Source: a virus. Taken from it: DNA of 64,000 nucleotides. The notes under the pieces are model-generated. The model ran no database searches and was not told where the DNA came from. It saw nothing but the letters and a program-made list of their open reading frames with translations. Location of the stretch: the UHGV virus genome UHGV-0180032, one strand, 5' to 3'. Positions 1,559-24,714 of this stretch are shown here, in pieces (positions within the stretch are counted from its first letter, which is position 1; each line of letters begins with the position of its first letter). Made by a program: the position numbers and the translations under genes.

Positions 1559-4500
1559 TTAAGATGTAAACATAAGATTGAACTGGAGTTTGTCGATATC
1601 GCGAGTTTCTGCCGGATTCACGGCATCGTACGCGGTCGCTACGTAAACGGTTAGCGTACCGTTCGCGTAAGACGATTTCACCGGTGGGTTAGTTCCGGAC
1701 TGACCATCTCGCACAATGAGTGTAGGTTCACTTGGGAGATTGTCAAACTGACCCTTAACCGCTTTATATACCAAACCCGATTGCGCAGCCAGTTCAGTGT
1801 CCGTAAAGACAAAGAACGGTGTGTCGATATCAGCCTGTTTGATTGTAGTACCAGACTCGACGTCAATCAACTGTACCGCCCCAAACTTCGTACGATAACT
1901 TCCATACTCGTTCTTCGGAATAACGAACGTGACATGAACACGAACCTCCTCGGCGGGTTTAAACCCACTGTGCTCTTTTTCCAGGTACTGGTTGGCGGTT
2001 AACGTTACCGTTTGTTCAGTCATCGTACCACCGGCCTGGTTTATTGCATACCGAGCTTCAACAATACCGGTTGGTGCAGCAAGTCGCAGTTTCAGAGCAC
2101 GATTCGCCGTTCCTGGATTACCTGGCACCTGAACGCGCAAACTCAATGTTAGGTAAGCATTCGTTCCGGTAGTCGGTTTCGTATACGCACCAATCCATTT
2201 CATGTTCGCAGACGCTGCCTGCGTGTTCTCAGAAGCAGTGGCTGTCGCAATGTTAGCAGCTACCGCTTTCTGCCAGAATTGGTCAGCGCAGTTCTCATAC
2301 GCTACCCTGGCCACGCTCTTATAACCCGAATACGTTTCCTGAATTGGTAACTTAGGACGCGTCGTAATGCCAGACAGTGAACCCCATTTCTGACCGTCAA
2401 CATACCCTTCACCTTTTGACGCAGACGCCGTAGGTGCTTTAACAGGCTTGTTAACCAGCGTTAATAGAGGACCCGTCTTTCTGTCAAACGCTGCTGCAAC
2501 ATCATGTTGGTCGATAATCGCTGCGTGGTCTTCCAGTTCTTTCACACGGCCCAAGCGTTTTACTTTGTCGATACGGATATCCGTAATACGGTTGGAATCA
2601 GTGGTTACTGTCCCGACGAACAGTCTCGTTGAAGTATCAGCTAACTGCTCCAAACCGATACGGTATTGCGCAGTAGAACCCGACACCTCAGCGTGCACGT
2701 AGAACGTCTGGTTAGCGTGGTTAGACGGGAATTCGCTGCTTAAGTCCACAGACCACGTTGGGAGCGTGTAACTGCTGCTACCGAAGTCTAATTTGACTTC
2801 TTCCGTCAAATATAGAATCCAGCCTTCTGCTGTCTCCACACCGGCAATAATAACAGCCTGACCTTCGGTTGAGAACGTCGTGTCGTTAACAAACTCTGCG
2901 GCTGTATACGCGTTACCTGAACAGAAAACACGGTCAGCTTTAGAGTAAATCAACGCCATCTTGTCCCAATCACCGGCACCCATAAAGCAGCCTGATTCTG
3001 GTCTATGTGCAGGGGCCATCTGTCGTAACTGTGATTTACCTGCAACGCGTGTCCAACCTGAACCAGGGTCGAAGGTATATTTCGCAGCGTAGCCCAGGGC
3101 GTTTAAGTCCCCGATATTTCGGGTAGTTAACGTATAAGGTAGCCAGATACCGAAGTTAGTTCCATCCACAGATGCAAAAATAGGCTGTCCCACGCGCCGC
3201 GTTTTACCACCCCCTTCTTCCCTCAAAGACTGATAACTTAAACCATAATCGAGGTCTAAGAACCAGTCCACCAACTTAAAGGTAGCGGAGTTGAAACGTA
3301 AGTAGCCGTTCTCTTTAGATGGGCTCACCATGAAGTAATAGATGTCCAGAATTCGACGTCCGTTACTTGAGGTTTTCATGCACGAAACTTGCAACAAGTC
3401 AAATTCGCACACGGTGTTGATACCCAACATCCAAAGAGCAAACAATGCATTACCGGTTTGATGGGCAGCACTAATACGTTCGTTCGCGTATCCGTTCGCT
3501 TCACCGGAAGGCGCACCGTCGACGATCATCCGAATCATTTTCTGCCGATCGGCTTCTTCTAACGTTAAACGTTCGGAGGACAACGCGAAATTACCGTAGA
3601 TGTTGCGATACGGGAACGTTTCTGCTTTGGTCAAATACCAACCGTTTAACTGTCCATGACGCTCCTCAGGGATCATACACGCAGCCATACAGCTAAGCTG
3701 CTCGTAAAGCGTCGCATCAACTTCACGACGGTTGTTGTTCGGACCGTACCCACTATACCCAGAAACATCGTAAGGTTTGTTCGGATCAACTTCCACTTCG
3801 ATCGTGTAACGGTTACGAGGGTTCGATAACCAGACCTTATTCGAACCACCAATCCCTACTGGATAAGACAAACCGATGGTGTAAATGGAGCCACGGCCTT
3901 TATCCCAGGTAAACGTTCCTTCGCCCGAGGTGTTGTTTGGGTTATCGTAACGCAGATAATCGAAAAGCTCTCTGCCTTGTGTACTCTTAATAGAAACATT
4001 AGGCATTTGGTCCGCATCGGCAATTTGCCAACAGGAAAGCATCATTCCTGTACCGTTGGGTTTAGCATACGTCGCGAAACAACGGTTGTTTGCCTGGCCA
4101 CCACCCCACTTACGATTGGTTCCTACAGTTGAACCATCTGCGAACGAGAGTGTAGTAGTAGCATCAGCCTTGATGGGGAAGCGTTCGCGGCCTTCTAACG
4201 TAACCTTGCCCGTCAACGTATCGATTGTAAAACTTGTTGCCCATTGAAGGAAATTAATCGTCGTACCGTCGGCCGCTGCAAACCACACGGTAGGCATATG
4301 GTTCACACGAATCACGCTATCGCGCACAGCACACGCGTGGTTACATTCTGGACCGTGAACAAAGTTACGCCCGATCGTCCATTTAGCACGACCCTCCGGT
4401 GTGAGATATGTAAAGAATTGACCCGTTTGCGACTCTTCGGTTTTCTGACCAATACGCAAGCAGAGGTTATCTCCGAATTGTCCCATCTCGCCGGTTAGAG

Positions 4501-6745
4501 TTACACGTTCAAATTCTAACGTAGTGTTAGTAGACAAATCGGCCTTACGTAGACGCCAAGCTGCTACGGCGTAAGCGGAGTTATTTACCGTTGAACGGAG
4601 AAGATAAACGTAGTCCTCAACCAACACGACATCGTCAGCTTCCGGCCACGGGTTCCAGGTTTGTTCCACAGTACCACTGGGGTTGCCGTTACGGTACACG
4701 GGCATCGTAACGCGACATACCACCGTGTGCTTAGTGTGGTCCATCGAGCCATTAAACAGCACCAAATAACGGTTATTGTCAGAACCCAGGCAAATAATCG
4801 CTTCCTGGCCACCGATCAAAATAGCTTTTAGGGTCACTCCAGGATATTTACTCATCCCGGCAGGGTGATATTTCACTGAGGTCTGCTGCGGATTTACAAA
4901 CGCGTTTGACGTGTCAATGTCAGCATAGCCGTAATAAATAGCTTCCGTACCCGGCACGCCGTTAGAACCGTTACGGAGCGAATAAACCTTACCCTGCTGA
5001 TACCCAACAACCCCTTTCTGGTAAGACTGGTTTTTGGTGTAGCCTGCGTAGTTGCCTAACGCTGGGATAGGTAAGAAGTTTTTATTACCGAATTTCGCAC
5101 CGCCTACTGTCCATGCCGGTAAGATGGTATTCAGTTTATCAGAGACCTTCTTAATCTCTTTTGCGAACAACCACCCTTGACGTGACGTGACAGCTTTATC
5201 GTTAGTGGTGTCAATTGCATCCCACAGCTGTAAGATACCATCAACCGTTGCACTACCAATCGGGACGTTATCCAAGTCAGCAGTGGTGTGGGTGTGCGTC
5301 TTCAAACTCTTGTTTTTCAACACGTTCGTTAACGCTTTTGTCACAGGCTTAGCACTCGGTATGGTGTTATCCATCTTATCGATACCGAAATCGGTTTTCG
5401 TTAAGGTTAACACCATGTTGTCGCCCGTCTTAACAAACCCTTTACCGTTAACGGTATAGTCATCGTCAACGTACAAGTCCAACCGGTCTTTTAATTCAGT
5501 TACGGCTTTCTGGGAGATAGCAGTACCTAACGCCGCAGACGTAGAGATATTCGTAATCGAGAACAACCCATAAACTGATTCGGACGCTGTGGGAATATTC
5601 GCGTTTAACGTGACCGGGTTAGTCTGTTTTGCGGTACCGTACGGTTTTACTGTGTCTGACGCTTTGAAATACGCGTTTGCTTCAAGCAACGTTACTGACG
5701 TCAGATACATGTTCACCATTTCTGGTGTAACCAGGTACACAGAGTTATAAACCGGTGCTAATACGTCCTGCTCTGACCCTGAGTGAACCCAAAGTGTATT
5801 CAGACCCGCACTGAATTCAACCGCTAAACCCGATTCGTTGTTGTCCTGGTCTGCTTTAATCACTAACGGTTGTGGCGAGGTAATTAACCACTTATCACCA
5901 CGAATACTGATGATGTGACCACCTGACGTTTTAAACGTTAATTCATTACCGTTCGTGGTGCCCCATCGACCGTAAACGGTGCCGAGGGCTTCACCCATTA
6001 ACTTGTCAACGTCGGATTGCTCAATACCCGCTGACCCCATCAGCGTAGCCAATTCGTCAATCGTTAACCCAAACGCTTTTGTGGCGTCAACCGCACGTCC
6101 TAATACGGGGAGAGCAGCAACGTCATCAGTGGTATAGTGATGCGCGTTAGGATTACGGTGATGCTGGTATAATTCTTCGTCGAAAACCTTTTTCCCGTTC
6201 TCGTAAATCAGGTTAGTGACTTCACTGAACGCAGCATCTAATTCCGTAGAACGTTTGATGATTTTCTTGCGAATGTCTTCTAAAGCCTTAACGACCTCGT
6301 CCCTCAGAATCGCTTCTTCTAAGTTAGCAGGCGGGTCGATAGGCTGAATAACCGGCGCATACGCCATTAGTTCAGACCAGTCCACGTTACGTGGGTCTTT
6401 CAGGTCAGTACGAACTAAGAACTTCCCGATTTCAGATTGCGGTACACGGTATTGACGTGCTACCCCTAAAATCTCGTATTCGATTTCTGTTGCGGTAAGC
6501 AACATAAACCCGCCGTAAATCTGATCCTGCTCAGCTTCGGCGAGTTCTTTAAAGTAATAGCCTAAATAGTAGTCCAACCCCTCAATCAGAGTACGACGTC
6601 CGTTAGGCGCGGTATCGTCGGCTACTGTGAGTTTTAATCCGATACGATAAAAAGGTCCTTCGGGTGGAATGACCACGTTAAATCGGTTAGGGTACGTCGC
6701 TGTGCTTAGCGTACCGTTAAACTGCGCCGCGTCTTCTCTCGGCAT
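1559..6745 (-). CDS. giant virion fibre/tailspike-like protein (1728 aa)
   Basis: Uninterrupted 5.2-kb ORF; AGGAGT RBS before the ATG at 6745; N-terminal motif (EGPFY...GLDYYL) paralogous to neighbours; size and Gly/Thr/Asn-rich composition typical of receptor-binding fibres. Confidence 0.55.
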   Translation of the reverse strand: MPREDAAQFNGTLSTATYPNRFNVVIPPEGPFYRIGLKLTVADDTAPNGRRTLIEGLDYYLGYYFKELAEAEQDQIYGGFMLLTATEIEYEILGVARQYRVPQSEIGKFLVRTDLKDPRNVDWSELMAYAPVIQPIDPPANLEEAILRDEVVKALEDIRKKIIKRSTELDAAFSEVTNLIYENGKKVFDEELYQHHRNPNAHHYTTDDVAALPVLGRAVDATKAFGLTIDELATLMGSAGIEQSDVDKLMGEALGTVYGRWGTTNGNELTFKTSGGHIISIRGDKWLITSPQPLVIKADQDNNESGLAVEFSAGLNTLWVHSGSEQDVLAPVYNSVYLVTPEMVNMYLTSVTLLEANAYFKASDTVKPYGTAKQTNPVTLNANIPTASESVYGLFSITNISTSAALGTAISQKAVTELKDRLDLYVDDDYTVNGKGFVKTGDNMVLTLTKTDFGIDKMDNTIPSAKPVTKALTNVLKNKSLKTHTHTTADLDNVPIGSATVDGILQLWDAIDTTNDKAVTSRQGWLFAKEIKKVSDKLNTILPAWTVGGAKFGNKNFLPIPALGNYAGYTKNQSYQKGVVGYQQGKVYSLRNGSNGVPGTEAIYYGYADIDTSNAFVNPQQTSVKYHPAGMSKYPGVTLKAILIGGQEAIICLGSDNNRYLVLFNGSMDHTKHTVVCRVTMPVYRNGNPSGTVEQTWNPWPEADDVVLVEDYVYLLRSTVNNSAYAVAAWRLRKADLSTNTTLEFERVTLTGEMGQFGDNLCLRIGQKTEESQTGQFFTYLTPEGRAKWTIGRNFVHGPECNHACAVRDSVIRVNHMPTVWFAAADGTTINFLQWATSFTIDTLTGKVTLEGRERFPIKADATTTLSFADGSTVGTNRKWGGGQANNRCFATYAKPNGTGMMLSCWQIADADQMPNVSIKSTQGRELFDYLRYDNPNNTSGEGTFTWDKGRGSIYTIGLSYPVGIGGSNKVWLSNPRNRYTIEVEVDPNKPYDVSGYSGYGPNNNRREVDATLYEQLSCMAACMIPEERHGQLNGWYLTKAETFPYRNIYGNFALSSERLTLEEADRQKMIRMIVDGAPSGEANGYANERISAAHQTGNALFALWMLGINTVCEFDLLQVSCMKTSSNGRRILDIYYFMVSPSKENGYLRFNSATFKLVDWFLDLDYGLSYQSLREEGGGKTRRVGQPIFASVDGTNFGIWLPYTLTTRNIGDLNALGYAAKYTFDPGSGWTRVAGKSQLRQMAPAHRPESGCFMGAGDWDKMALIYSKADRVFCSGNAYTAAEFVNDTTFSTEGQAVIIAGVETAEGWILYLTEEVKLDFGSSSYTLPTWSVDLSSEFPSNHANQTFYVHAEVSGSTAQYRIGLEQLADTSTRLFVGTVTTDSNRITDIRIDKVKRLGRVKELEDHAAIIDQHDVAAAFDRKTGPLLTLVNKPVKAPTASASKGEGYVDGQKWGSLSGITTRPKLPIQETYSGYKSVARVAYENCADQFWQKAVAANIATATASENTQAASANMKWIGAYTKPTTGTNAYLTLSLRVQVPGNPGTANRALKLRLAAPTGIVEARYAINQAGGTMTEQTVTLTANQYLEKEHSGFKPAEEVRVHVTFVIPKNEYGSYRTKFGAVQLIDVESGTTIKQADIDTPFFVFTDTELAAQSGLVYKAVKGQFDNLPSEPTLIVRDGQSGTNPPVKSSYANGTLTVYVATAYDAVNPAETRDIDKLQFNLMFTS

Positions 6746-9800: not shown

Positions 9801-11024
9801 AGCGGTGGTCGCTTTCGTCGGGTCGATAGTCCCCACGATGGGATCGGCACGAGAACCTTTACCGGTAAAACTAATCCCGTTACGGCCTTCGATATACACT
9901 TTGGAGTCATCAGGATCGCTACCGCCACTCCCGCCAGCATCAGGGTCTTGCTGATACTCCATCAGCGCTGTGGTGGTCAACAACGGGTTACCGTTCAGGG
10001 TGAGTTTGTTCATCCCTAAAGCGTCACCGGTTGACTCGATGCGTAAGGTGTTTTTACCCGCACGCCAGTTAATGTAACGCCCCGCACCTGTGCCTTCCAG
10101 ATGCCCTACCGCTAATACCACAGAACCGTTGGATTTTAACGTAAAGCCATCATTCGCAAAAATGATTTCGGATTCACCGTTTTTCGAACGGAATTGTGCG
10201 CGGTTTCCAGACACCGTACAGTTAAACACGCCCCGTACTTCCGAAGAAATCCAGTGGGAGATATACGTGTCAATAACTGACTGTGGTAAACGAAACGCTT
10301 TCAGTTCATCCGTTAACGCTTTCAATTTTAACCCGTACGCCATAAAGGTGTCAGGTGTTTTCAGGTTAACGGGATGGGCATTAATTTGTGCGCTCGTGGT
10401 TTCGTGCGGGTTCGTCGCGGCGATATGTGCTGGGTAGTTAAACGCTTCAATTTCTTTCCCCAACGCAGTCACTAGCACTTTAACTTCGGCTATTTTATCC
10501 TTAATTAGCTGGTTAGCGTCATCGGTTTTCAACTCAATATCGTGAATCGCTGACGCTAAGTATTTTTTGTTCAGCAAATCCGCCCAGGACGTTGCCGCAG
10601 GCGTAGCTGGGTATAACGACGGTCTACCGTCTAACAACAGCCAGTCTGCACTGACTGGGTTATTCAGATATTTCACCAACTCGTCGAGCATGTCAACGAA
10701 CGGGTCGTAGAACGTACCGCCGAGCATTTGTCCTTCAAAGGTTACGATCCCTTTGATGGATGGGTTGATAAGGTGTACCCCACAATACACGTTGGCTGCT
10801 ACCGAGTCATCCAGTTCCGTCAGCTGATATTGCAGTTCGTAGTCCACCCCACGGCTCAGTGGGGTGGTTGAACCTGGTTGTCTGACGACTAAGTCTTCAA
10901 AGAACGGGCGATGGTCTAAAATCACCACCCGGTCATTGTTGTTTTCTGACCCGATGATACGCTCCTCTAAGAAGTGATTCTCGGTTTTCGTCCCCCGAGG
11001 ATCGTAAGGATACGCTTTCATCAA
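6840..11024 (-). CDS. giant virion fibre/tailspike-like protein (1394 aa)
   Basis: Uninterrupted 4.2-kb ORF; starts 10 nt downstream of the preceding gene; N-terminal motif (HRPFFEDL...GVDYEL) shared with neighbours. Confidence 0.55.
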   Translation of the reverse strand: MMKAYPYDPRGTKTENHFLEERIIGSENNNDRVVILDHRPFFEDLVVRQPGSTTPLSRGVDYELQYQLTELDDSVAANVYCGVHLINPSIKGIVTFEGQMLGGTFYDPFVDMLDELVKYLNNPVSADWLLLDGRPSLYPATPAATSWADLLNKKYLASAIHDIELKTDDANQLIKDKIAEVKVLVTALGKEIEAFNYPAHIAATNPHETTSAQINAHPVNLKTPDTFMAYGLKLKALTDELKAFRLPQSVIDTYISHWISSEVRGVFNCTVSGNRAQFRSKNGESEIIFANDGFTLKSNGSVVLAVGHLEGTGAGRYINWRAGKNTLRIESTGDALGMNKLTLNGNPLLTTTALMEYQQDPDAGGSGGSDPDDSKVYIEGRNGISFTGKGSRADPIVGTIDPTKATTAEKGVVKLKTGKGTETVGVAATPASLTPYSTDLSGYVTKTTMINGKPMNDGSRTITKADLGLGQADNTADLDKPLSTALNASVSGLADVGHHHDWSELGIYKASQTIYGIGRYATNQNGLVENRAVVPNILKELSARLDVVAAAIANAKEGTVTDFAAVKGADWRFNSQGTSISVQDLKYFYLLDGTKGDSTVTGAIDLQTTPMFNWFSPNNQLELTWPTGKVSNGTGINWTGIEEPPLMGFQSVAVGKTATQMGDQSVVTVLAKTRVRAYQSKLWVYAAGGGPVTVYINGNLAASGESPLVAVYETSSDVENYTIAVKAECSDTAKSAAVQFEVYDGDYPVYFSGPETRVELLQEFVTTHVGIRHYLYVNMLTGSLYSRAEPIQSVAVDPERGYIGYVDIVAGENYANKTVGFETTFDFGKSAEVSGHIATRKAHGLSSVDWALTDNPRLPLLNRAIAEPRACIFRKALAAGTGDVFHLVSRGLYTYAHNQNVKSSLQYVVIPEGATPYCWFTPFNPKENNAPTFEGSFVFDVDDVGGTQALTAAPDLVLCTSTQGASVKRRYVRIDLTAKACKLGIGSRSVSDVTDIPLVMEESGETAVNATFKDVLFNGEETNPAILDLIGWGAARDKISANHAPRGMIRYRYNVSTRVLRLALSFSQFGTTTVKQRQLEIQFPFDLVDYFTGDGIGLSFKELSAKCRVTISHALIDPVTNNINIDKYHYLRSLFESYLDSSVGYLADNKDADYSQSVIDPATYEISQKYRVTESIALPTGQGSVAVSHDGQLPAQFFDRKLSRGALMAKNNELHTSWNNEWSTTKAAASRYRHKLILRFAQGADKQQYRIAKVTGTIKSNWPGKVIIGDAGKDPFLASTDSAEFALSTSADVGKAISITATDLRVGQDIYIVLDPPGNNPEGYELNFTCSLDVTDEQSTRQDQLNAQSFELRSGEKQFLMEKRNPYHITSKAWKWILSVLKRELNGKQLGDRT

Positions 11025-16737: not shown

Positions 16738-16947
16738 TTAGTCTTTTTTGTAGACGATCGCGTTACCGTGCAGTTTGTTGTTACCGGAAATACCGATAAC
16801 TTTAAACGCTTCACCGCCGATCTTTTCAGCTTCGACAGCCAGCTTAGCAGTAACGTCGTCTACGGTGTCACCGAAAGCGCTTACGTTACCAATTTTCTTG
16901 AACTCTTCAGGAATGTGTTCGGCAGAAGAGAATTCTTTAATAGCCAT
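16738..16947 (-). CDS. BhsA/YdgH-like (DUF1471) small protein lacking a signal peptide
   Basis: 69-aa ORF with GGAGAG RBS; C-terminal ...KVIGISGNNKLHGNAIVYKK resembles the BhsA/YcfR ...SFRITSVTGPNTLHGTAVIYK motif as recalled from memory; no N-terminal hydrophobic leader. Confidence 0.5.
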   Translation of the reverse strand: MAIKEFSSAEHIPEEFKKIGNVSAFGDTVDDVTAKLAVEAEKIGGEAFKVIGISGNNKLHGNAIVYKKD

Positions 16948-18113: not shown

Positions 18114-18132
18114 TAGGTCGTTCCTTAGATCG

Positions 18133-18155
18133 GAAATGTAATCAGATATATTTTA
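18133..18155 (+). promoter_or_regulatory. conserved promoter-like motif, copy 1
   Basis: CAGATATATTTTACTTAGGTGAG; immediately followed by a 10-bp-stem hairpin (18157-18183). Confidence 0.4.
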
Positions 18156-18501
18156 CTTAGGTGAGTAGGGGCTGAACTCGCACTTCAGCCCCTATGGGCA
18201 CGTTTCTTTCGAAACGGAGTTACCACGTGATTAGGAGACAGACCAATGTCTACTGAGAAGAAAAGCGGATTGGACGAAGTCATCGAACTGTTCAAACGCT
18301 ACAACCCGGCTATTCCTCGGTAATCATAGTATTACTTAAAATTTACAGATTGACCCTTTATTCTGCTACTCGGGATACCGGTAGGGGGTAGGGGGCAATA
18401 TGTATACGGATATAAATAGCGGAGGTATACGTAGTATACCGACATACTCTTCCCAGAGGAACGTAGTGACTTCCTTATTCCTTTTTAGGAGAATAAACCC
18501 C

Positions 18502-19239
18502 ATGAGAGACTTAATTGACGATATCTTTACCAATACCAGTTTAGAGCTTTCTTCTACGGTGGTTAACGATCTAATAGGGCAACCGTATCCTGCTAAGTTA
18601 ATGTCAGTCGGTACCATTAAACCCGAAGATTATCCAGACAATGACATTATCGACTGTATAATTGACGAATACACGATAGCCAGTTACGCCAGCCGGGTCT
18701 TCTTTGTTCTTAATAGCGAAACCAGTGTCATTTTAATCTATAAGTTGATTAGTGGTGCTGAACTTGAAGTTGTAGCCGACCACATTCGTCTTATTGCGAG
18801 TACGATTGATGATTTCGCTGTTGCGCTTTTTGGAGACAGTTGGCCTTTGCAACCCCTGTTCGCTTACTTCCCACTGTTTAAGCATGGAATAGGGTTAATC
18901 CGACATACAGAAACCCTTCCCGATAACGTAGAGCTATCGCTGCTTGGACCCGGCATCGATCTTTATCCATTAAAAGACGAGGGCACGCTATATGGTTTGC
19001 GCATTTATGTTTCTCTGTTAGAGGGATACCGCGTTATTGAATTGATTGCATCAGATTTAGCAAAACAGATCCCTGAAGTAGAAACGATTTCTAAAGCCAC
19101 CCACCAGGTTGAGATTAACCTAGGCGATCCCTTATTGAAATATCACAAAGAAATTGACCTTCGTAAAATCGCCACAACAAGAGGGTGGGGGTGTGCTGAG
19201 GTTACGAATGGCTATCTGTTATTAATTAAAACCGCGTAA
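18502..19239 (+). CDS. hypothetical protein; member of a tandem paralog family with C-terminal GW...LL motif
   Basis: ATG at 18502 with AGGAGA upstream; alternative ATG at 18400 possible; C-terminus RGWGCAEVTNGYLLLIKTA resembles the ends of the next three genes. Confidence 0.45.
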   Translation: MRDLIDDIFTNTSLELSSTVVNDLIGQPYPAKLMSVGTIKPEDYPDNDIIDCIIDEYTIASYASRVFFVLNSETSVILIYKLISGAELEVVADHIRLIASTIDDFAVALFGDSWPLQPLFAYFPLFKHGIGLIRHTETLPDNVELSLLGPGIDLYPLKDEGTLYGLRIYVSLLEGYRVIELIASDLAKQIPEVETISKATHQVEINLGDPLLKYHKEIDLRKIATTRGWGCAEVTNGYLLLIKTA

Positions 19240-19264
19240 GTAAAAACCTAAAGGAGAAAATATC

Positions 19265-19804
19265 ATGATTAGTATCGAAATGAAACAACAAGTTATTGAA
19301 TTTATTAACCGGGGCGTGGGTAAACATCGTTTTGAAAACCCGTACAATATATTGTCTAACGTTATCCAACCGGGTACATTGATCACTGGTATTGAAGTAG
19401 AAAAAATCAGCGAAGATGCTGTGCTTTATTATCGCGGTTACGGGGATAGCTTTACCGAATTATTCCGTAAACTGTTTTCCGGTACCGGATGGAAAGTGAC
19501 GAGCGCGTCCTACGACGGTGGCGCGGATGTTGTTACGCTTCTAGACACGGGGAAAGCACTCTATATCGTGAACTTTACTTTCGCAAGACGCTACGCGTAT
19601 TTCCCGAACCCTCTTACGTGTACGTTAAGTAACCCAGGATTACTGTTGACAGATAAAGAAGCGGAAACACTACTTACAGAACTGAAGAAGGACGGTTGCG
19701 ACGCTGGCGATTGGGAAACATTGGTAGGGACAGCAAAAGCACACGGTTGGTATACCGTGCGTAATCTCGGTCAGCAGTTGTTGTTCTTAGCTTATAATGT
19801 TTAA
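19265..19804 (+). CDS. hypothetical protein; paralog family (C-terminal HGWYTVRNLGQQLLFLA)
   Basis: 179-aa ORF, AAAGGAGA RBS; shared C-terminal motif. Confidence 0.55.
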   Translation: MISIEMKQQVIEFINRGVGKHRFENPYNILSNVIQPGTLITGIEVEKISEDAVLYYRGYGDSFTELFRKLFSGTGWKVTSASYDGGADVVTLLDTGKALYIVNFTFARRYAYFPNPLTCTLSNPGLLLTDKEAETLLTELKKDGCDAGDWETLVGTAKAHGWYTVRNLGQQLLFLAYNV

Positions 19805-19815
19805 AGGATAATATC

Positions 19816-20943
19816 ATGCATATTTGCCATAACGCACCGTCGCACAGACTTTATCTTGAAATGCTTTTCGAGGACTACAAGAAAGGGGTGCCGAAAATAT
19901 TACTTAGCATCTCAGGTGCCACGCAAACTGAATTGTTCGGTCGTGTTTTTGGTTGTACCGTTAACGCTTTGCCAGAACCAATCTGTGCACCTGTGGATGT
20001 TTGTGTTTTCGACGAGCGAATTGAGGATTTTCAATTCACCTTTTACGTAAATGATTCTTTACCGTACGACAAACTTTACGTTCGTGAGTTGAAATCAAAT
20101 CAGCGGTTAATGTACCGCGTCTATCCACCCCACAAATGGTCGGTGCTAGAGTATAAAATCAGGCGGCTACCTTACGAGGGTGTGCAATTACTCGACCAGC
20201 AGGATATGGCTTTTCTGGAAGAACTTTGCGGATTTGAAATTGAGAAGATTCACGTAACCCAGGAAATATCCCGAAACGTACCTAGTCGTCATACCCCTAA
20301 CGGTGGATTTCCGTACGAGTTCACCGACACAGGACTAAGGCTCGTAACCGAATTTAACGACGTAATGTATTACGCAGTGTGTATTGAACGTAAAGTAGTG
20401 GAGAAAGAAATGGCAAGTACATTGAAAGAAGAATTAGCCCAATTCATTCGTGATGTTGAAGAGAAAAGCAAGAGCGATCACATATTCTCACAACGCTATC
20501 CTGAACTTATTGACGAAACCACCGATAGTGTCGTCGACGGTATACGCATTTTCCCAAGTGGTCTTGCAATCTACCGACTACCTAGCGTTAACCAGCTTAA
20601 AGTCATGGAAATGCTAAAAGACGTTTTAGCAGAAGCGGGTTGGGAATATCGCTTCGATTGCAATTTCGAAGGGATGGCGTTATTCGTTACAAAGAAAAAC
20701 TATACCTTGTCAATCGATCTACCTAAAAGTCAATATTACAGTTTCTTCCCGAAAGCGGATGACCGCACTGAAAAAGAACCTGCGATGTTACTTGATGCGG
20801 CAGAATCCAATACGTTAATGGTGCGTCTGCGGTCAATTGACAAAAAGTTAAACACCAGTCATTTAACGACGATCGGTAAAGATTACGGTTGGAAATCTGT
20901 CGAACCGTACGGCAGTCAGCTGCTGTTTGTTGCTGACCTTTAA
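19816..20943 (+). CDS. hypothetical protein; paralog family (C-terminal YGWKSVEPYGSQLLFVA)
   Basis: 375-aa ORF; shared C-terminal motif; followed by a terminator hairpin. Confidence 0.55.
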   Translation: MHICHNAPSHRLYLEMLFEDYKKGVPKILLSISGATQTELFGRVFGCTVNALPEPICAPVDVCVFDERIEDFQFTFYVNDSLPYDKLYVRELKSNQRLMYRVYPPHKWSVLEYKIRRLPYEGVQLLDQQDMAFLEELCGFEIEKIHVTQEISRNVPSRHTPNGGFPYEFTDTGLRLVTEFNDVMYYAVCIERKVVEKEMASTLKEELAQFIRDVEEKSKSDHIFSQRYPELIDETTDSVVDGIRIFPSGLAIYRLPSVNQLKVMEMLKDVLAEAGWEYRFDCNFEGMALFVTKKNYTLSIDLPKSQYYSFFPKADDRTEKEPAMLLDAAESNTLMVRLRSIDKKLNTSHLTTIGKDYGWKSVEPYGSQLLFVADL

Positions 20944-20969
20944 TAAGTGAAAATACACTTTCTCTAACT

Positions 20970-20994
20970 GCCGCGCTTTAGTCGCGGCTTTTGT
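20970..20994 (+). terminator. intrinsic terminator
   Basis: GCCGCG/CGCGGC stem followed by TTTTG. Confidence 0.5.
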
Positions 20995-21010
20995 TAAGAA
21001 GGAAATAGAA

Positions 21011-21784
21011 ATGAAAGTCCATTTAGACGACCTCTTTAAAACTGAACCGTATATGGTTAAAGGTTCATTGGCTTCACTGTTGTTAGATGATAGATTTCAT
21101 CGAACGCTCCAATTACAATCGGTCGAATCCGCACCAACAGAAGACGTGGGTCTTTATCAACGTATCACTTATACACGCGGAGAATATCGGCGATATAAAC
21201 CTGATACGCTAACCGTTAAGCTCTGGCAAGTGGCCACAGGCAAAGTATTAACTTATCGCACTGTTGGTCTGTACTACGTTGAACGTGCCTACGCGTGGTT
21301 AGAAGAAGTTAAAGAAATGGATTACGACCGCTTAAGCAAAAGACTGCGCGATAACAACGCCAGTTTACCGATACGCAATTATTTCTCCACAATTGAAAAT
21401 AGTCGTTGTTTCGTTTCACGCGAATCCATGATATTGCCTGGGGCTGATGTTCAGACGACACTAAAAGATGTGGTTGTGAGGAAAATCTTTCATGAATCTG
21501 AACACGTTGGATTTCGTATCTATTTAACTCACAAGAGGCCATTTACCGTGATTCATCTTGTTACCGTACCCGAAGGCTCAGCGGTCGTACGTGAACTTCC
21601 TGACGCACGTGACCGTAGTCCTAATGAGCCGCTTTACTTAATGTCAGGAACAAAATCAGAATCTTTGATGTCCCGTTACAGCATGGTTGATGTTGTTGAT
21701 ACTGCTATGAAGTTAGGTTGGAAAGAAGTACAGCAGCACGGCAAACAATTGCTGTTTATCGCAGATGTAAATCTCAATAACTAA
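21011..21784 (+). CDS. hypothetical protein; paralog family (C-terminal LGWKEVQQHGKQLLFIA)
   Basis: 257-aa ORF with GAAGGAAA RBS; shared C-terminal motif. Confidence 0.55.
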   Translation: MKVHLDDLFKTEPYMVKGSLASLLLDDRFHRTLQLQSVESAPTEDVGLYQRITYTRGEYRRYKPDTLTVKLWQVATGKVLTYRTVGLYYVERAYAWLEEVKEMDYDRLSKRLRDNNASLPIRNYFSTIENSRCFVSRESMILPGADVQTTLKDVVVRKIFHESEHVGFRIYLTHKRPFTVIHLVTVPEGSAVVRELPDARDRSPNEPLYLMSGTKSESLMSRYSMVDVVDTAMKLGWKEVQQHGKQLLFIADVNLNN

Positions 21785-21796
21785 AGAGGTGGTACC

Positions 21797-22375
21797 GTGT
21801 ACCGATTAATAGAAATGAGAAAAGACGTTTGGTTGGAAAACCTCGTCGATGGGGAGCTCGAGGGAATAGAGCTTTCCTTACCAGAGAGAGCGGACACGGT
21901 ATTGGCCTTTCTGGTAAAACAGGCAGACCGTGAACCGGTAGGAATCTTCACTGTGGACTATAAAGATCCACGAGGAATCCATTTACGGAACATTTGCAGT
22001 GGTTTGGAAAACTTACCGGCTAATCCGTTCTTAAACTACGCAAAACGTAAACTCCAACCGGGACAACACCTCTGGGTAACGTTATCGCCTGACGTTAGGA
22101 TCATACGTGACGATTACTCGGCGTTTGTACAGGCAACGAAAGTCAGTCTGTATAACCCGAACGCAGAGCGTACCGATATGCCGTTTATAATTACCTTAGA
22201 AGACGATGGAACGCAAGAAGGTATCGAGGCAATTACGGAATTAGTAAACTCTTATCCGGTTGCCACTATGGAGTTAGAAAACCCAAGCCGACTACCGTTG
22301 GGTGACCTGCTCGAATGGATTGAACTGAATACAGAATTCTTAATCAATTCTCGTCAGTATCGATTCGATGTTTAA
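21797..22375 (+). CDS. hypothetical protein (192 aa)
   Basis: GTG start with AGAGGTGG RBS; followed by terminator at 22380-22410. Confidence 0.5.
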   Translation: MYRLIEMRKDVWLENLVDGELEGIELSLPERADTVLAFLVKQADREPVGIFTVDYKDPRGIHLRNICSGLENLPANPFLNYAKRKLQPGQHLWVTLSPDVRIIRDDYSAFVQATKVSLYNPNAERTDMPFIITLEDDGTQEGIEAITELVNSYPVATMELENPSRLPLGDLLEWIELNTEFLINSRQYRFDV

Positions 22376-22379
22376 CAAC

Positions 22380-22410
22380 GGTGGGGTGTAAGCCCCACCT
22401 TTTATTTTTT
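22380..22410 (+). terminator. intrinsic terminator
   Basis: GGTGGGG/CCCCACC stem followed by TTTTATTTTTT. Confidence 0.7.
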
Positions 22411-22504: not shown

Positions 22505-22966
22505 ATGAAAATCTTCACTTCCTTTTTAATCGCCCTTTTCGCAATCGGATTCAATACTGCACACGCCGCAATCAATAGCTGGGAACAACTACCGAACCCA
22601 GGTCAGGCTGTTTACGAAATTGAAGATACCGCCGGAAACGGACTGTCTATCAACTGTGACACTGAAACTGCGAATCGCAAATTTTACGGTCGCATGGTTT
22701 GGTATTACGGGGAACCTGTAGGTGCAACTAACGCTGAAGACAACACGTTGGATATTGTCGTAAATGGCAAAACCTACAACATCCCTACCGTGGATGGTAG
22801 TGACAAAGCAGAACTCGCTTGGGTGGCTTTCGTTAACGCTATCGGTAACGCCAAAACGTTCAGTGTGAATATCAATGGTAACGAAGCTGCTAACTTTACC
22901 GTAGAAGGCGAACGTCTGTCGGAAACTTTCTTCCAGAACTGTGGACACACCCGTCCTAACAAATAA
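22505..22966 (+). CDS. secreted/periplasmic hypothetical protein
   Basis: N-terminal signal-peptide-like segment MKIFTSFLIALFAIGFNTAHA; GAGGAG RBS. Confidence 0.55.
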   Translation: MKIFTSFLIALFAIGFNTAHAAINSWEQLPNPGQAVYEIEDTAGNGLSINCDTETANRKFYGRMVWYYGEPVGATNAEDNTLDIVVNGKTYNIPTVDGSDKAELAWVAFVNAIGNAKTFSVNINGNEAANFTVEGERLSETFFQNCGHTRPNK

Positions 22967-22988
22967 GTATTAATCTTTTTTAGAGTGC

Positions 22989-23381
22989 GTGAAAATGAAT
23001 ATCAGAACTATACTTTATACAATCATTATTTTCTGTGCAATCGGCATTACTGGCACTTATGCTTTCGGTGGCTCGGATGTCAGCCATTACGAACCGGCTC
23101 CTGACTCACCGATTATCAACCCGGATGAGTCCCCTACGTTAATGCGCAGTTTCGGTAAACTGCAAGTTTATCGCTTAGTACGTGGTGAAACGTGTACCGG
23201 ATTACTCATTGCTGACACCCGTGCACAAGTCTACCAACGTCTGACGGATATCGCCTGCGAACAACCAAAAGTCATGTCGGTCAGTATTCATCCGTTAGAG
23301 GTCGGTAATTATACTGCTGTGGACTTCTTCCATAATGCAGAACTGATTGGCCGTATTACTTTAAATCGTAGCGCTGAATAA
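22989..23381 (+). CDS. secreted/periplasmic hypothetical protein
   Basis: N-terminal hydrophobic leader ...ILYTIIIFCAIGITGTYA; start could be GTG 22989 or ATG 22995. Confidence 0.5.
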   Translation: MKMNIRTILYTIIIFCAIGITGTYAFGGSDVSHYEPAPDSPIINPDESPTLMRSFGKLQVYRLVRGETCTGLLIADTRAQVYQRLTDIACEQPKVMSVSIHPLEVGNYTAVDFFHNAELIGRITLNRSAE

Positions 23382-23399
23382 TTTAATGGAGAATTTACA

Positions 23400-23888
23400 A
23401 TGAAACGTTTACACACCCTGATGTTCTTCGTGGCTATTCTTTTCACAGGCTTTACCTTTAACGCAGAAGCGGCTACCGTAAAACAAGCTCTTAGCTGTAA
23501 CCCGGAAGCCTGGGCTGAACAACCTGGTGCGTGTCCATCAACGTACGAGTTGTACGAAGGTGACGCTACCTACAAAGCCGCTATCGACAAAGCATTAAAA
23601 CCGGTCGGACTGAGCGGCATGTTCGGTAAAGGCGGCTATATGGATGGCCCTGGTGGAGGTATCACGCCAGTAAACATTAACGGTACAGTCTGGCTCCAGG
23701 GCGACGGTTGCAAAGCCAATACCTGCGGCTGGGACTTTATCGTAACACTCTATAACCCAAAAACCCATGAAGTTGTTGGCTACCGTTACTTTGGTTTAGA
23801 TGACCCGGCCTACCTGGTTTGGTTCGGTGAAATTGGCGTGCATGAATTCGCGTATCTGGTGAAAAACTACGTAGCTGCGGTTAACTAA
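23400..23888 (+). CDS. secreted Ivy-like (lysozyme/lytic-transglycosylase inhibitor) candidate
   Basis: Signal peptide MKRLHTLMFFVAILFTGFTFNAEA; KGG-Y ... GCKANTCG loop resembling the Ivy C-K-x-x-x-C motif, compared against a sequence recalled from memory. Confidence 0.4.
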   Translation: MKRLHTLMFFVAILFTGFTFNAEAATVKQALSCNPEAWAEQPGACPSTYELYEGDATYKAAIDKALKPVGLSGMFGKGGYMDGPGGGITPVNINGTVWLQGDGCKANTCGWDFIVTLYNPKTHEVVGYRYFGLDDPAYLVWFGEIGVHEFAYLVKNYVAAVN

Positions 23889-23903
23889 TTTAAGGAGTCT
23901 ATC

Positions 23904-24314
23904 ATGAAAACGTTTATCAAAACTTTACTCGTTGCTGTAACTGTTCTGTTCTCTCTTAACGTGGCAGCAAAAACAGTAAAACTACCGGCGGGTATCAAAT
24001 ACGTCAACAGTACCGATGAATTCTACTGCACAGAAATTGACGGTCTGTATTGCCAGACAAAGAATTTGTTTGAATACAAAGGTAACAGATATGTTTTCGT
24101 TGTTGAGCAAGGCGGTGCCTGGTGCTACGACAGCCCTATGTCGGTACTCAACCTGGAAACTTGGAAAGCACAGAAAATTGAATACAAAGACAACCAACTG
24201 TGTTCAGGCGAAAACAAACCGTTCTTCAAAATCAAAAATGGTGTCCCGACTGTAGGTATTATCGACACCTCTGGAACACCAATCGTTGTAGCTCAGGACA
24301 AACTTAAAATCTAA
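23904..24314 (+). CDS. secreted/periplasmic Cys-containing hypothetical protein
   Basis: Signal peptide MKTFIKTLLVAVTVLFSLNVAA; AAGGAG RBS; several Cys residues. Confidence 0.55.
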   Translation: MKTFIKTLLVAVTVLFSLNVAAKTVKLPAGIKYVNSTDEFYCTEIDGLYCQTKNLFEYKGNRYVFVVEQGGAWCYDSPMSVLNLETWKAQKIEYKDNQLCSGENKPFFKIKNGVPTVGIIDTSGTPIVVAQDKLKI

Positions 24315-24324
24315 GGAGTAAACC

Positions 24325-24714
24325 ATGCGTCTTATCTGCGCTTTGTTGGCGTTTTTCTCAATCGGAGTTATGGCTTCTACACACATCGACGATTTATTAC
24401 TTACCCCGGCAACGAACACAGACTATCACTACAACCCACCGGGTTTTGAAGTCTGCGAAGGCGATGCAGGCGAATGCCAAGAAGTTGGCGCAGATGGACG
24501 CTATATACTCGTAAAAGCAGACGGCGGGACAACCTGTCCTGCGGGTTATTATTTCGTACTTGACTCTGTAGCAAAAGAGGTGCTTCCTGTAACGACCAAA
24601 ACGTGTGACCCCACAGTTGTACTAACGCTTGCGAAAAGCAAATCACGTGACCGTCATCTTATCGTCATCGAAGAACGCGGTGAGATGCTAGGCGCTATCG
24701 AATTAGATTACTGA
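24325..24714 (+). CDS. secreted/periplasmic Cys-containing hypothetical protein
   Basis: Signal peptide MRLICALLAFFSIGVMAS; AAGGAG RBS; terminator follows. Confidence 0.55.
   Translation: MRLICALLAFFSIGVMASTHIDDLLLTPATNTDYHYNPPGFEVCEGDAGECQEVGADGRYILVKADGGTTCPAGYYFVLDSVAKEVLPVTTKTCDPTVVLTLAKSKSRDRHLIVIEERGEMLGAIELDY

Follow-up and report, generated by a model that had tools for sequence, protein, structure and literature searches.

A tandem gene array with a shared C-terminal domain in an SPN3US-like jumbo phage

In the 64,000-nucleotide stretch of virus genome UHGV-0180032 that we analysed (hereafter the window), four consecutive plus-strand genes, here called A to D, lie between positions 18502 and 21784. 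The original prediction, made from the letters of the DNA alone, had described them as a tandem array of four paralogues that share only a C-terminal motif and resemble diversifying accessory families such as host-range, anti-defence or exclusion proteins. The open reading frames (ORFs) themselves were recovered exactly, with products of 245, 179, 375 and 257 amino acids (aa). Gene callers predict the same four genes on a 223,842-bp metagenome contig that carries identical copies, where A is likewise called as 245 aa. Gene A (18502–19239) begins at an ATG at 18502 with an AGGAG ribosome-binding site 8 nucleotides (nt) 5' of it; its product, probably a diverged paralogue of D, ends in a degenerate C-terminal domain (about residues 186–245, nt 19057–19236, closing with GWGCAEVTNGYLLLIKTA). 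Gene B (19265–19804) is predicted to encode two helix-plus-three-strand modules followed by the C-terminal domain at about residues 111–179 (nt 19595–19801). In gene C (19816–20943), the most variable member, some four predicted helix-plus-sheet modules precede a domain at about 309–375 (nt 20740–20940). Gene D (21011–21784) is nearest to the family consensus, with the conserved domain at about 191–257 (nt 21581–21781). No N-terminal signal or hydrophobic segment was found in the sequences of A to D.

Judged from their sequences, B, C and D are certainly paralogues. Pairwise blastp comparisons gave 5.9e-9 for B and C over 114 aa, 8.8e-10 for C and D, and 3e-4 for B and D. We then applied leave-one-out hidden Markov models (HMMs) to the last 120 residues of each protein, with 2000 residue shuffles per tail as a composition-matched null. 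Scores were 32 bits for B, 60 for C and 66 for D, against 7–11 bits for the best shuffle, and none of the 2000 shuffles reached the real score. The C-terminal similarity of these three proteins, which the original prediction had proposed to weigh against such shuffles, thus stands far above them. A profile built only from the proteins of other phages (SPN3US, Phobos, phiEaH2 and CR5) still scored 21, 42 and 62 bits, and in a window-wide scan of 421 ORF segments the three were found with E-values of 1e-20 to 2e-23. Nor is the similarity confined to a short motif, as had been thought. The conserved unit is about 65–70 aa long, and in profile–profile comparison residues 6–176 of B align to 203–373 of C (P = 1.6e-11) and residues 286–375 of C to 167–253 of D (P = 1.1e-10). 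In other words, gene B corresponds to the entire C-terminal half of gene C.

The position of gene A is less secure. The tails of B (HGWYTVRNLGQQLLFLA), C (YGWKSVEPYGSQLLFVA) and D (LGWKEVQQHGKQLLFIA) carry the motif much as first described, whereas that of A (RGWGCAEVTNGYLLLIKTA) departs from it. The core HMM gives A 6–9 bits, a score equalled by one or two of 2000–5000 shuffles (P of about 4e-4 to 1e-3), and ranks it fourth among the 421 ORF segments of the window, with E = 0.17. Only the P, GW and LL of the signature are retained, and the register of the hairpin is displaced by one residue. When three A orthologues were compared with the D family using hhalign, a weak end-to-end alignment over 233 columns was obtained (P = 2.8e-4); against the core profile, the last 26 residues aligned (P = 5e-4). 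We regard A as probably a paralogue of D that has diverged strongly, so that the array holds three clear members and one probable member instead of the four originally counted. Gene E, which follows D, was considered as a fifth member and ruled out, having no similarity to the core domain or to any of genes A to D.

The conserved domain has a sharp signature, PDxxDR(S/T)xN(D/E)PxYLMS...GWxxVxxxGxQLLF, whose P, D, R, N, P and L sit in an N-terminal arm and the first strand. Between the arm and first strand and the terminal A..GWxxVxxxGxQLLF, an insertion of 0 to about 45 residues is found. Across 53 family members, each residue of P-D..R..N.P..L...GW..V...G.QLLF is conserved in at least 72%, and the terminal G, W, V, G, Q, L and F in 83–100%. 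Conservation is highest in the N-terminal arm and the final hairpin. Genes C and D have the full signature; B keeps the P, N-P, L and GW..V...G.QLLF, and its arm (PNPLTCTLSNP) no longer has the D and R residues. The core is neutral to acidic, with a median net charge of -1 and values at or below zero in 75% of members, which favours a protein over DNA as its partner.

AlphaFold2 models of B and C have mean predicted local distance difference test (pLDDT) scores of 88.5 (confident) and 72.8 (moderate), with values of about 87–96 and 68–91, respectively, over the C-terminal domain. The core is modelled alike in both, as a strand, two helices and a hairpin (beta-alpha-alpha-beta-beta). N-terminal to it the models contain repeats of one helix plus three to five antiparallel strands, two in B and about four in C, a count that agrees with the alignment of B to the C-terminal half of C. 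Neither model has fibre-like, beta-helix or coiled-coil features. The statement that no known domain can be recognised holds: searches of Pfam and NCBIfam gave nothing above threshold, a PDB-sequence profile search gave nothing at E <= 10, and no known fold was found. A search of BFVD returned nothing but uncharacterised proteins from jumbo phages of Erwinia and Klebsiella.

Two candidate functions were set aside. The sole match to a PD-(D/E)xK nuclease (Pfam Mrr_cat) covers residues 61–102 of B at E = 0.038, with 14.5 bits against a cut-off of 21. We reject it because the putative catalytic residues vary among B orthologues: the 'DGGAD' stretch is replaced by YGGIVV or HEGKTS, and no (D/E)xK follows it. 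Sliding-clamp binding was considered because Q-L-L-F is nearly invariant. The clamp-binding motif is an exposed, flexible C-terminal QL[SD]LF pentapeptide; QLLF is one residue short of that consensus and, in both models, is the final strand of the beta-hairpin that closes the core.

The 53 members were all that HMMER recovered when 1.84 billion cluster representatives were scanned exhaustively, and they include stand-alone versions of the domain only 72–130 aa long. All members whose source can be traced come from phage or phage-like contigs, and on this sequence sampling the family appears to be phage-restricted. Four PHROGs (26772, 33648, 24489 and 18480) match the C-terminal domain, gene D matching PHROG 26772 at 4e-11; all four are annotated as of unknown function, and the array proteins have no match to a structural PHROG. 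The family had thus already been catalogued, as PHROGs of unknown function and hypothetical proteins, and what is new is the expanded set of members. The search of other phage genomes that had been suggested at the outset was productive for D, whose domain matched, by tblastn, a single gene in each of 35 deposited phage records. In the same kind of search gene B had no match among 50,697 deposited phage genomes, and a locus search with gene A as query recovered the identical copy only. Orthologues of B occur in about 70 clusters at 42–96% identity. The stand-alone copies are found on phage contigs, where their neighbours are non-structural genes: one lies between N6/N4 DNA methyltransferase and Bro-N genes with Dam and HTH genes near, another is on a 112-kb contig beside genes for glutaredoxin and deoxynucleoside kinase, and a third lies 3' of genes for an AAA ATPase and a T4-type RNA ligase.

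The genes matched by D include SPN3US gp175 (AEP84008 / YP_009153469, 412 aa), Phobos gp176, CR5_165 and phiEaH2 gp097, which have the same C-terminal domain of about 70 aa, the same signature and the same slot in the genome, with N-terminal regions that are likewise unrelated or variable. In SPN3US, Phobos, phiEaH2, CR5 and the window alike, the gene is divergent from a baseplate gene and lies upstream of an orthologue of SPN3US gp176. In the window this last is gene E (21797–22375, plus strand; 192 aa), which matches PHROG 20879 at 4.7e-31. Since D adjoins gene E in the same slot, gene order identifies it as the positional orthologue of gp175; the other three genes of the array are additional copies specific to the clade of the window. 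Copy number differs accordingly: the gene is single-copy in the four isolate genomes that we inspected, whereas the clade of the window has three clear copies and a degenerate one. In the published inventory of SPN3US proteins, gp175 bears no 'STR' flag and has homologues only in PhiEaH2 and CR5 (Thomas et al. 2016 Table S1, PMC5105663). Other mentions of 'gp175' in papers on SPN3US refer to the phiKZ protease or the phiPA3 RecA, which are different proteins.

The window region as a whole is syntenic with the Salmonella giant phage SPN3US and its Erwinia and Cronobacter relatives. Two genes for very large virion proteins (minus strand) are followed by a 420-aa gene, a DUF1471/YdgH-like gene and the baseplate gene; beyond the baseplate gene a long plus-strand run of small genes reaches an SMC-like gene. 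The array diverges from the baseplate gene and is co-oriented with the small non-structural genes of that run. At the DNA level, a megablast of the array against the 50,697 phage genomes found no match, and the baseplate protein is at most 73% identical to those of Erwinia phages Stratton and phiEaH2. Close relatives are contigs of about 222–227 kb, recovered from gut metagenomes or from sequencing runs of Salmonella, E. coli and Shigella. Because of this synteny, the lack of a DNA-level match among deposited phages and the nature of the closest contigs, the source of the window is an uncultivated SPN3US-like jumbo phage of enterobacteria with a genome of about 223 kb.

When the window was compared with the related phages L010 and L008, and dN/dS (the ratio of nonsynonymous to synonymous substitution rates) was calculated by the Nei–Gojobori method, the array proved to evolve three to ten times as fast as its flanks. 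Flanking proteins are 89–100% identical between these phages, compared with 70% for A, 79% and 43% for B, 61% and 41% for C, and 83% and 80% for D. Divergence is concentrated N-terminally: against L010, the N-terminal part of C is 48% and its C-terminal part 95% identical. The C-terminal parts of C and D are 95–96% identical to those of L010 and 59–89% identical to those of the more distant L008. Values of dN/dS are 0.35 for A, 0.26–0.32 for B, 0.38 for C and 0.18 for D, falling to 0.06–0.12 over the last 67 codons of D; elsewhere they are 0.02–0.10 for the baseplate-side flanks and E, and 0.03–0.17 for the small downstream genes. Gene A is absent from three relatives (L010–L012). As a description, the term diversifying accessory family is apt in identity, dN/dS, presence or absence and copy number; as a claim of positive selection it goes too far, with gene-wide dN/dS below 1 throughout.

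Synonymous divergence (dS) from L010 is 1.84 in the N-terminal part of C and 0.154 in its C-terminal part, and 0.97 and 0.115 in those of D. Because dS climbs about tenfold at the domain border in both genes, we interpret the N-terminal modules as having been swapped by recombination with more distant alleles, with a breakpoint near the border of the conserved domain. Recombination among the paralogues of this phage at the present day is unlikely on the sequence evidence, because at the DNA level identity between the 3' ends of B, C and D is limited to short stretches (for example GGTTGG and CTGTT).

The account that we favour, tentatively, is that the array arose when the phage-restricted gp175 family expanded in tandem in this lineage, and that the family members would be non-virion accessory proteins that join a C-terminal docking domain to variable N-terminal modules. 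D would occupy the ancestral slot, with A, B and C added upstream of it. Each protein is modular, consisting of a variable number of helix-plus-antiparallel-sheet modules fused to the conserved C-terminal domain of about 65–70 residues, and its fast-evolving N-terminal region is traded between phages through recombination. The proteins would act in the cytoplasm, where the C-terminal domain may dock all paralogues on one conserved partner, which would more probably be a protein than DNA. Different target specificities could then come from the variable N-terminal modules, as for host-takeover or counter-defence factors. A small, strictly conserved C-terminus combined with swappable, fast-evolving N-termini is the pattern that docking predicts. 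We favour a non-structural role because of the contexts of the stand-alone copies, the missing structural flag on gp175, the divergence of the array from the baseplate gene, and the lack of signal sequences and of fibre-like features. Several observations weigh against this account. The membership of A depends on P values of about 1e-3 to 1e-4. The array lies near baseplate and tail genes, and a virion-associated role would fit that location. Weak winged-helix hints could mean that the core binds nucleic acid instead of docking on a protein, and relaxed constraint would give the same dN/dS values as those obtained here.

A bolder extension, which we think has a small chance of being right, is that the C-terminal domain is an undescribed phage-specific adaptor that docks interchangeable N-terminal recognition modules on a single hub. 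That hub might be a conserved host factor or, since these phages are chimallivirus-like, a component of their phage nucleus or import machinery. In that case the tandem array would act as a recombining cassette system that supplies effectors for counter-defence or host takeover, much as polymorphic toxin or immunity loci do.

Alternatively, the proteins may be Bro-like nucleic-acid-binding regulators or antirepressor-like proteins, a multigene family in which the C-terminal domain, a truncated winged helix, would bind DNA or RNA and the partner domains would be shuffled. We consider this unlikely but worth weighing. The winged helix runs alpha1-beta1-alpha2-alpha3-beta2-beta3, so that the modelled order of the core, with its C-terminal hairpin as the 'wing', could be read as a winged helix minus helix 1. 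Stand-alone members give sub-threshold Pfam matches to TBPIP/Hop2, Mnd1 and wHTH (E = 0.009–0.25), and one of them is flanked by the DNA methyltransferase and Bro-N genes mentioned above. However, both the structural and the Pfam matches are weak, with scores below significance. The core also differs from winged helices in lacking the first helix, in being acidic to neutral and in accepting large insertions (up to about 45 aa in stand-alone members) between the two helices of the would-be helix-turn-helix. We looked for a conserved basic recognition helix or a positive charge and rejected both, given the charge distribution above and the location of the conserved columns outside helix 2, in the arm and the hairpin. 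The charge and the inter-helix insertion argue against a classical DNA-binding winged helix.

The multigene families of baculoviruses and phages that carry Bro-N and KilA-N domains, in which Iyer, Koonin and Aravind reportedly described in 2002 a conserved domain joined to shuffled partner domains, provide an architectural parallel to the array. Like the array, they combine a small conserved module with variable partners, occur as several paralogues per genome and as stand-alone versions, and reside in non-structural accessory regions. Unlike them, the array proteins have no detectable Bro-N or KilA-N domain, and their conserved module is C-terminal and not basic. The likeness is one of architecture and not of membership.

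It is also conceivable, though we give this little weight, that the array consists of functionally decaying duplicates, produced by neutral expansion and evolving rapidly under relaxed constraint, with no specific role in host interaction. The raised dN/dS that is nonetheless below 1, the degeneracy of A and its dispensability in some relatives, and the loss of the conserved D and R from the arm of B would all be expected in this case. Counter to this, many related genomes, a 221.9 kb one associated with E. coli among them, have all four reading frames intact, and the C-terminal domains are strongly constrained, as the identities for C and D and the low dN/dS over the end of D attest. Even in A, the C-terminus is the best-conserved part among the three orthologues, and the N-terminal swaps preserve both the reading frame and the modular architecture.

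Least favoured of the roles originally proposed is a virion or host-range one, in which baseplate or tail-fibre accessory proteins would contact receptors through their N-terminal modules and be anchored to the baseplate by their C-terminus; although the array directly adjoins the baseplate and tail structural block, an arrangement kept in SPN3US-like phages, and variability with copy-number change is typical of receptor-binding proteins, we judge it improbable in view of the divergent orientation of the array and its alignment with small non-structural genes, the lack of a structural mark on gp175 (PMC5105663), the DNA-metabolism and modification neighbourhoods of stand-alone homologues in unrelated phages, and models and PHROG matches devoid of structural features.

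Giant phages of the phiKZ-like and SPN3US-like groups are known for expanding paralogues in tandem. Examples are the 17-member head family of SPN3US and the gp168/phiKZ gp131 tail family (PMC5105663). Those are families of virion proteins, whereas the array proteins have no structural sign and no sequence similarity to them. We therefore see the array as an expanded set within a known kind, that of the paralogous accessory families of giant phages.

Turning to transcription signals, consensus scans placed between C and D a GC hairpin that resembles a terminator and has a T-run (20970–20988, plus strand), and a strong terminator-like hairpin 3' of gene E (22380–22399). The first, identified by consensus scan only, may divide the array into transcription units A-B-C and D-E. 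A phiKZ-like early promoter upstream of A ('TAGTATTAC') was discounted, as there were 13 matches against 15.5 expected, that is, no enrichment; nor were sigma-70-like sites enriched in the consensus scan. The divergent intergenic region 5' of A (18114–18501) contains a perfect GC-rich hairpin at about 18168–18203 and a 25-aa ORF at 18246–18323. Its counterparts lie at 6617–7001 in L010–L012 and at 10299–10670 in L008, and the matching position in SPN3US is occupied by gp174 (105 aa). L008 also has an additional 123-aa gene 3' of gene E.

Other features of the neighbourhood were recorded in passing. The YdgH/BhsA/McbA-like (DUF1471) protein encoded between the tail and baseplate genes (16738–16947, minus strand; 69 aa; Pfam 3.4e-10) lacks a signal peptide, even though members of the bacterial family are periplasmic, and it is conserved in SPN3US, phiEaH2, CR5 and Phobos. 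Downstream, at 22505–24714 on the plus strand, five successive small genes encode proteins of 153, 128, 162, 136 and 129 aa, all of which have a hydrophobic N-terminus resembling a signal peptide (MKIFTSFLIALFAIGFNTAHA and MKRLHTLMFFVAILFTGFTFNAEA are examples). They point to a cluster of small exported proteins encoded by a lytic jumbo phage. For the first of these genes a precomputed Pfam match to YfjT is on record, and a separate Pfam scan at E <= 0.01 gave none. The third (23400–23888) is fast-evolving, with 59–77% identity compared with 90–99% for most of its neighbours.

One close relative has been deposited not as a phage but as a circular 'plasmid p98232-contig_4' of 221,873 bp from E. 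coli strain 98232, a urinary isolate (NZ_CP173450.1). It covers 71% of the array region at 90% identity. Some family members are likewise labelled by NCBI as Salmonella, Shigella or E. coli proteins. The plasmid label and the bacterial labels together suggest either that an uncultivated jumbo phage persists in clinical isolates, in a carrier state or as a pseudolysogen, or that the sequences are contaminants.

In giant nucleus-forming phages, genes of unknown function number in the hundreds, and those relevant to host interaction are hard to pick out. The locus described here is notable as a compact domain family without a Pfam model, defined by a sharp signature and found in stand-alone form in unrelated phages. 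It combines a conserved C-terminal domain with recombining N-terminal modules, and its copies have multiplied in a single clade, which circulates with E. coli, Salmonella and Shigella. Because it is compact and signature-bearing, has stand-alone versions and shows clear evolutionary behaviour, the family is a reasonable candidate for experimental study and for a new domain entry.

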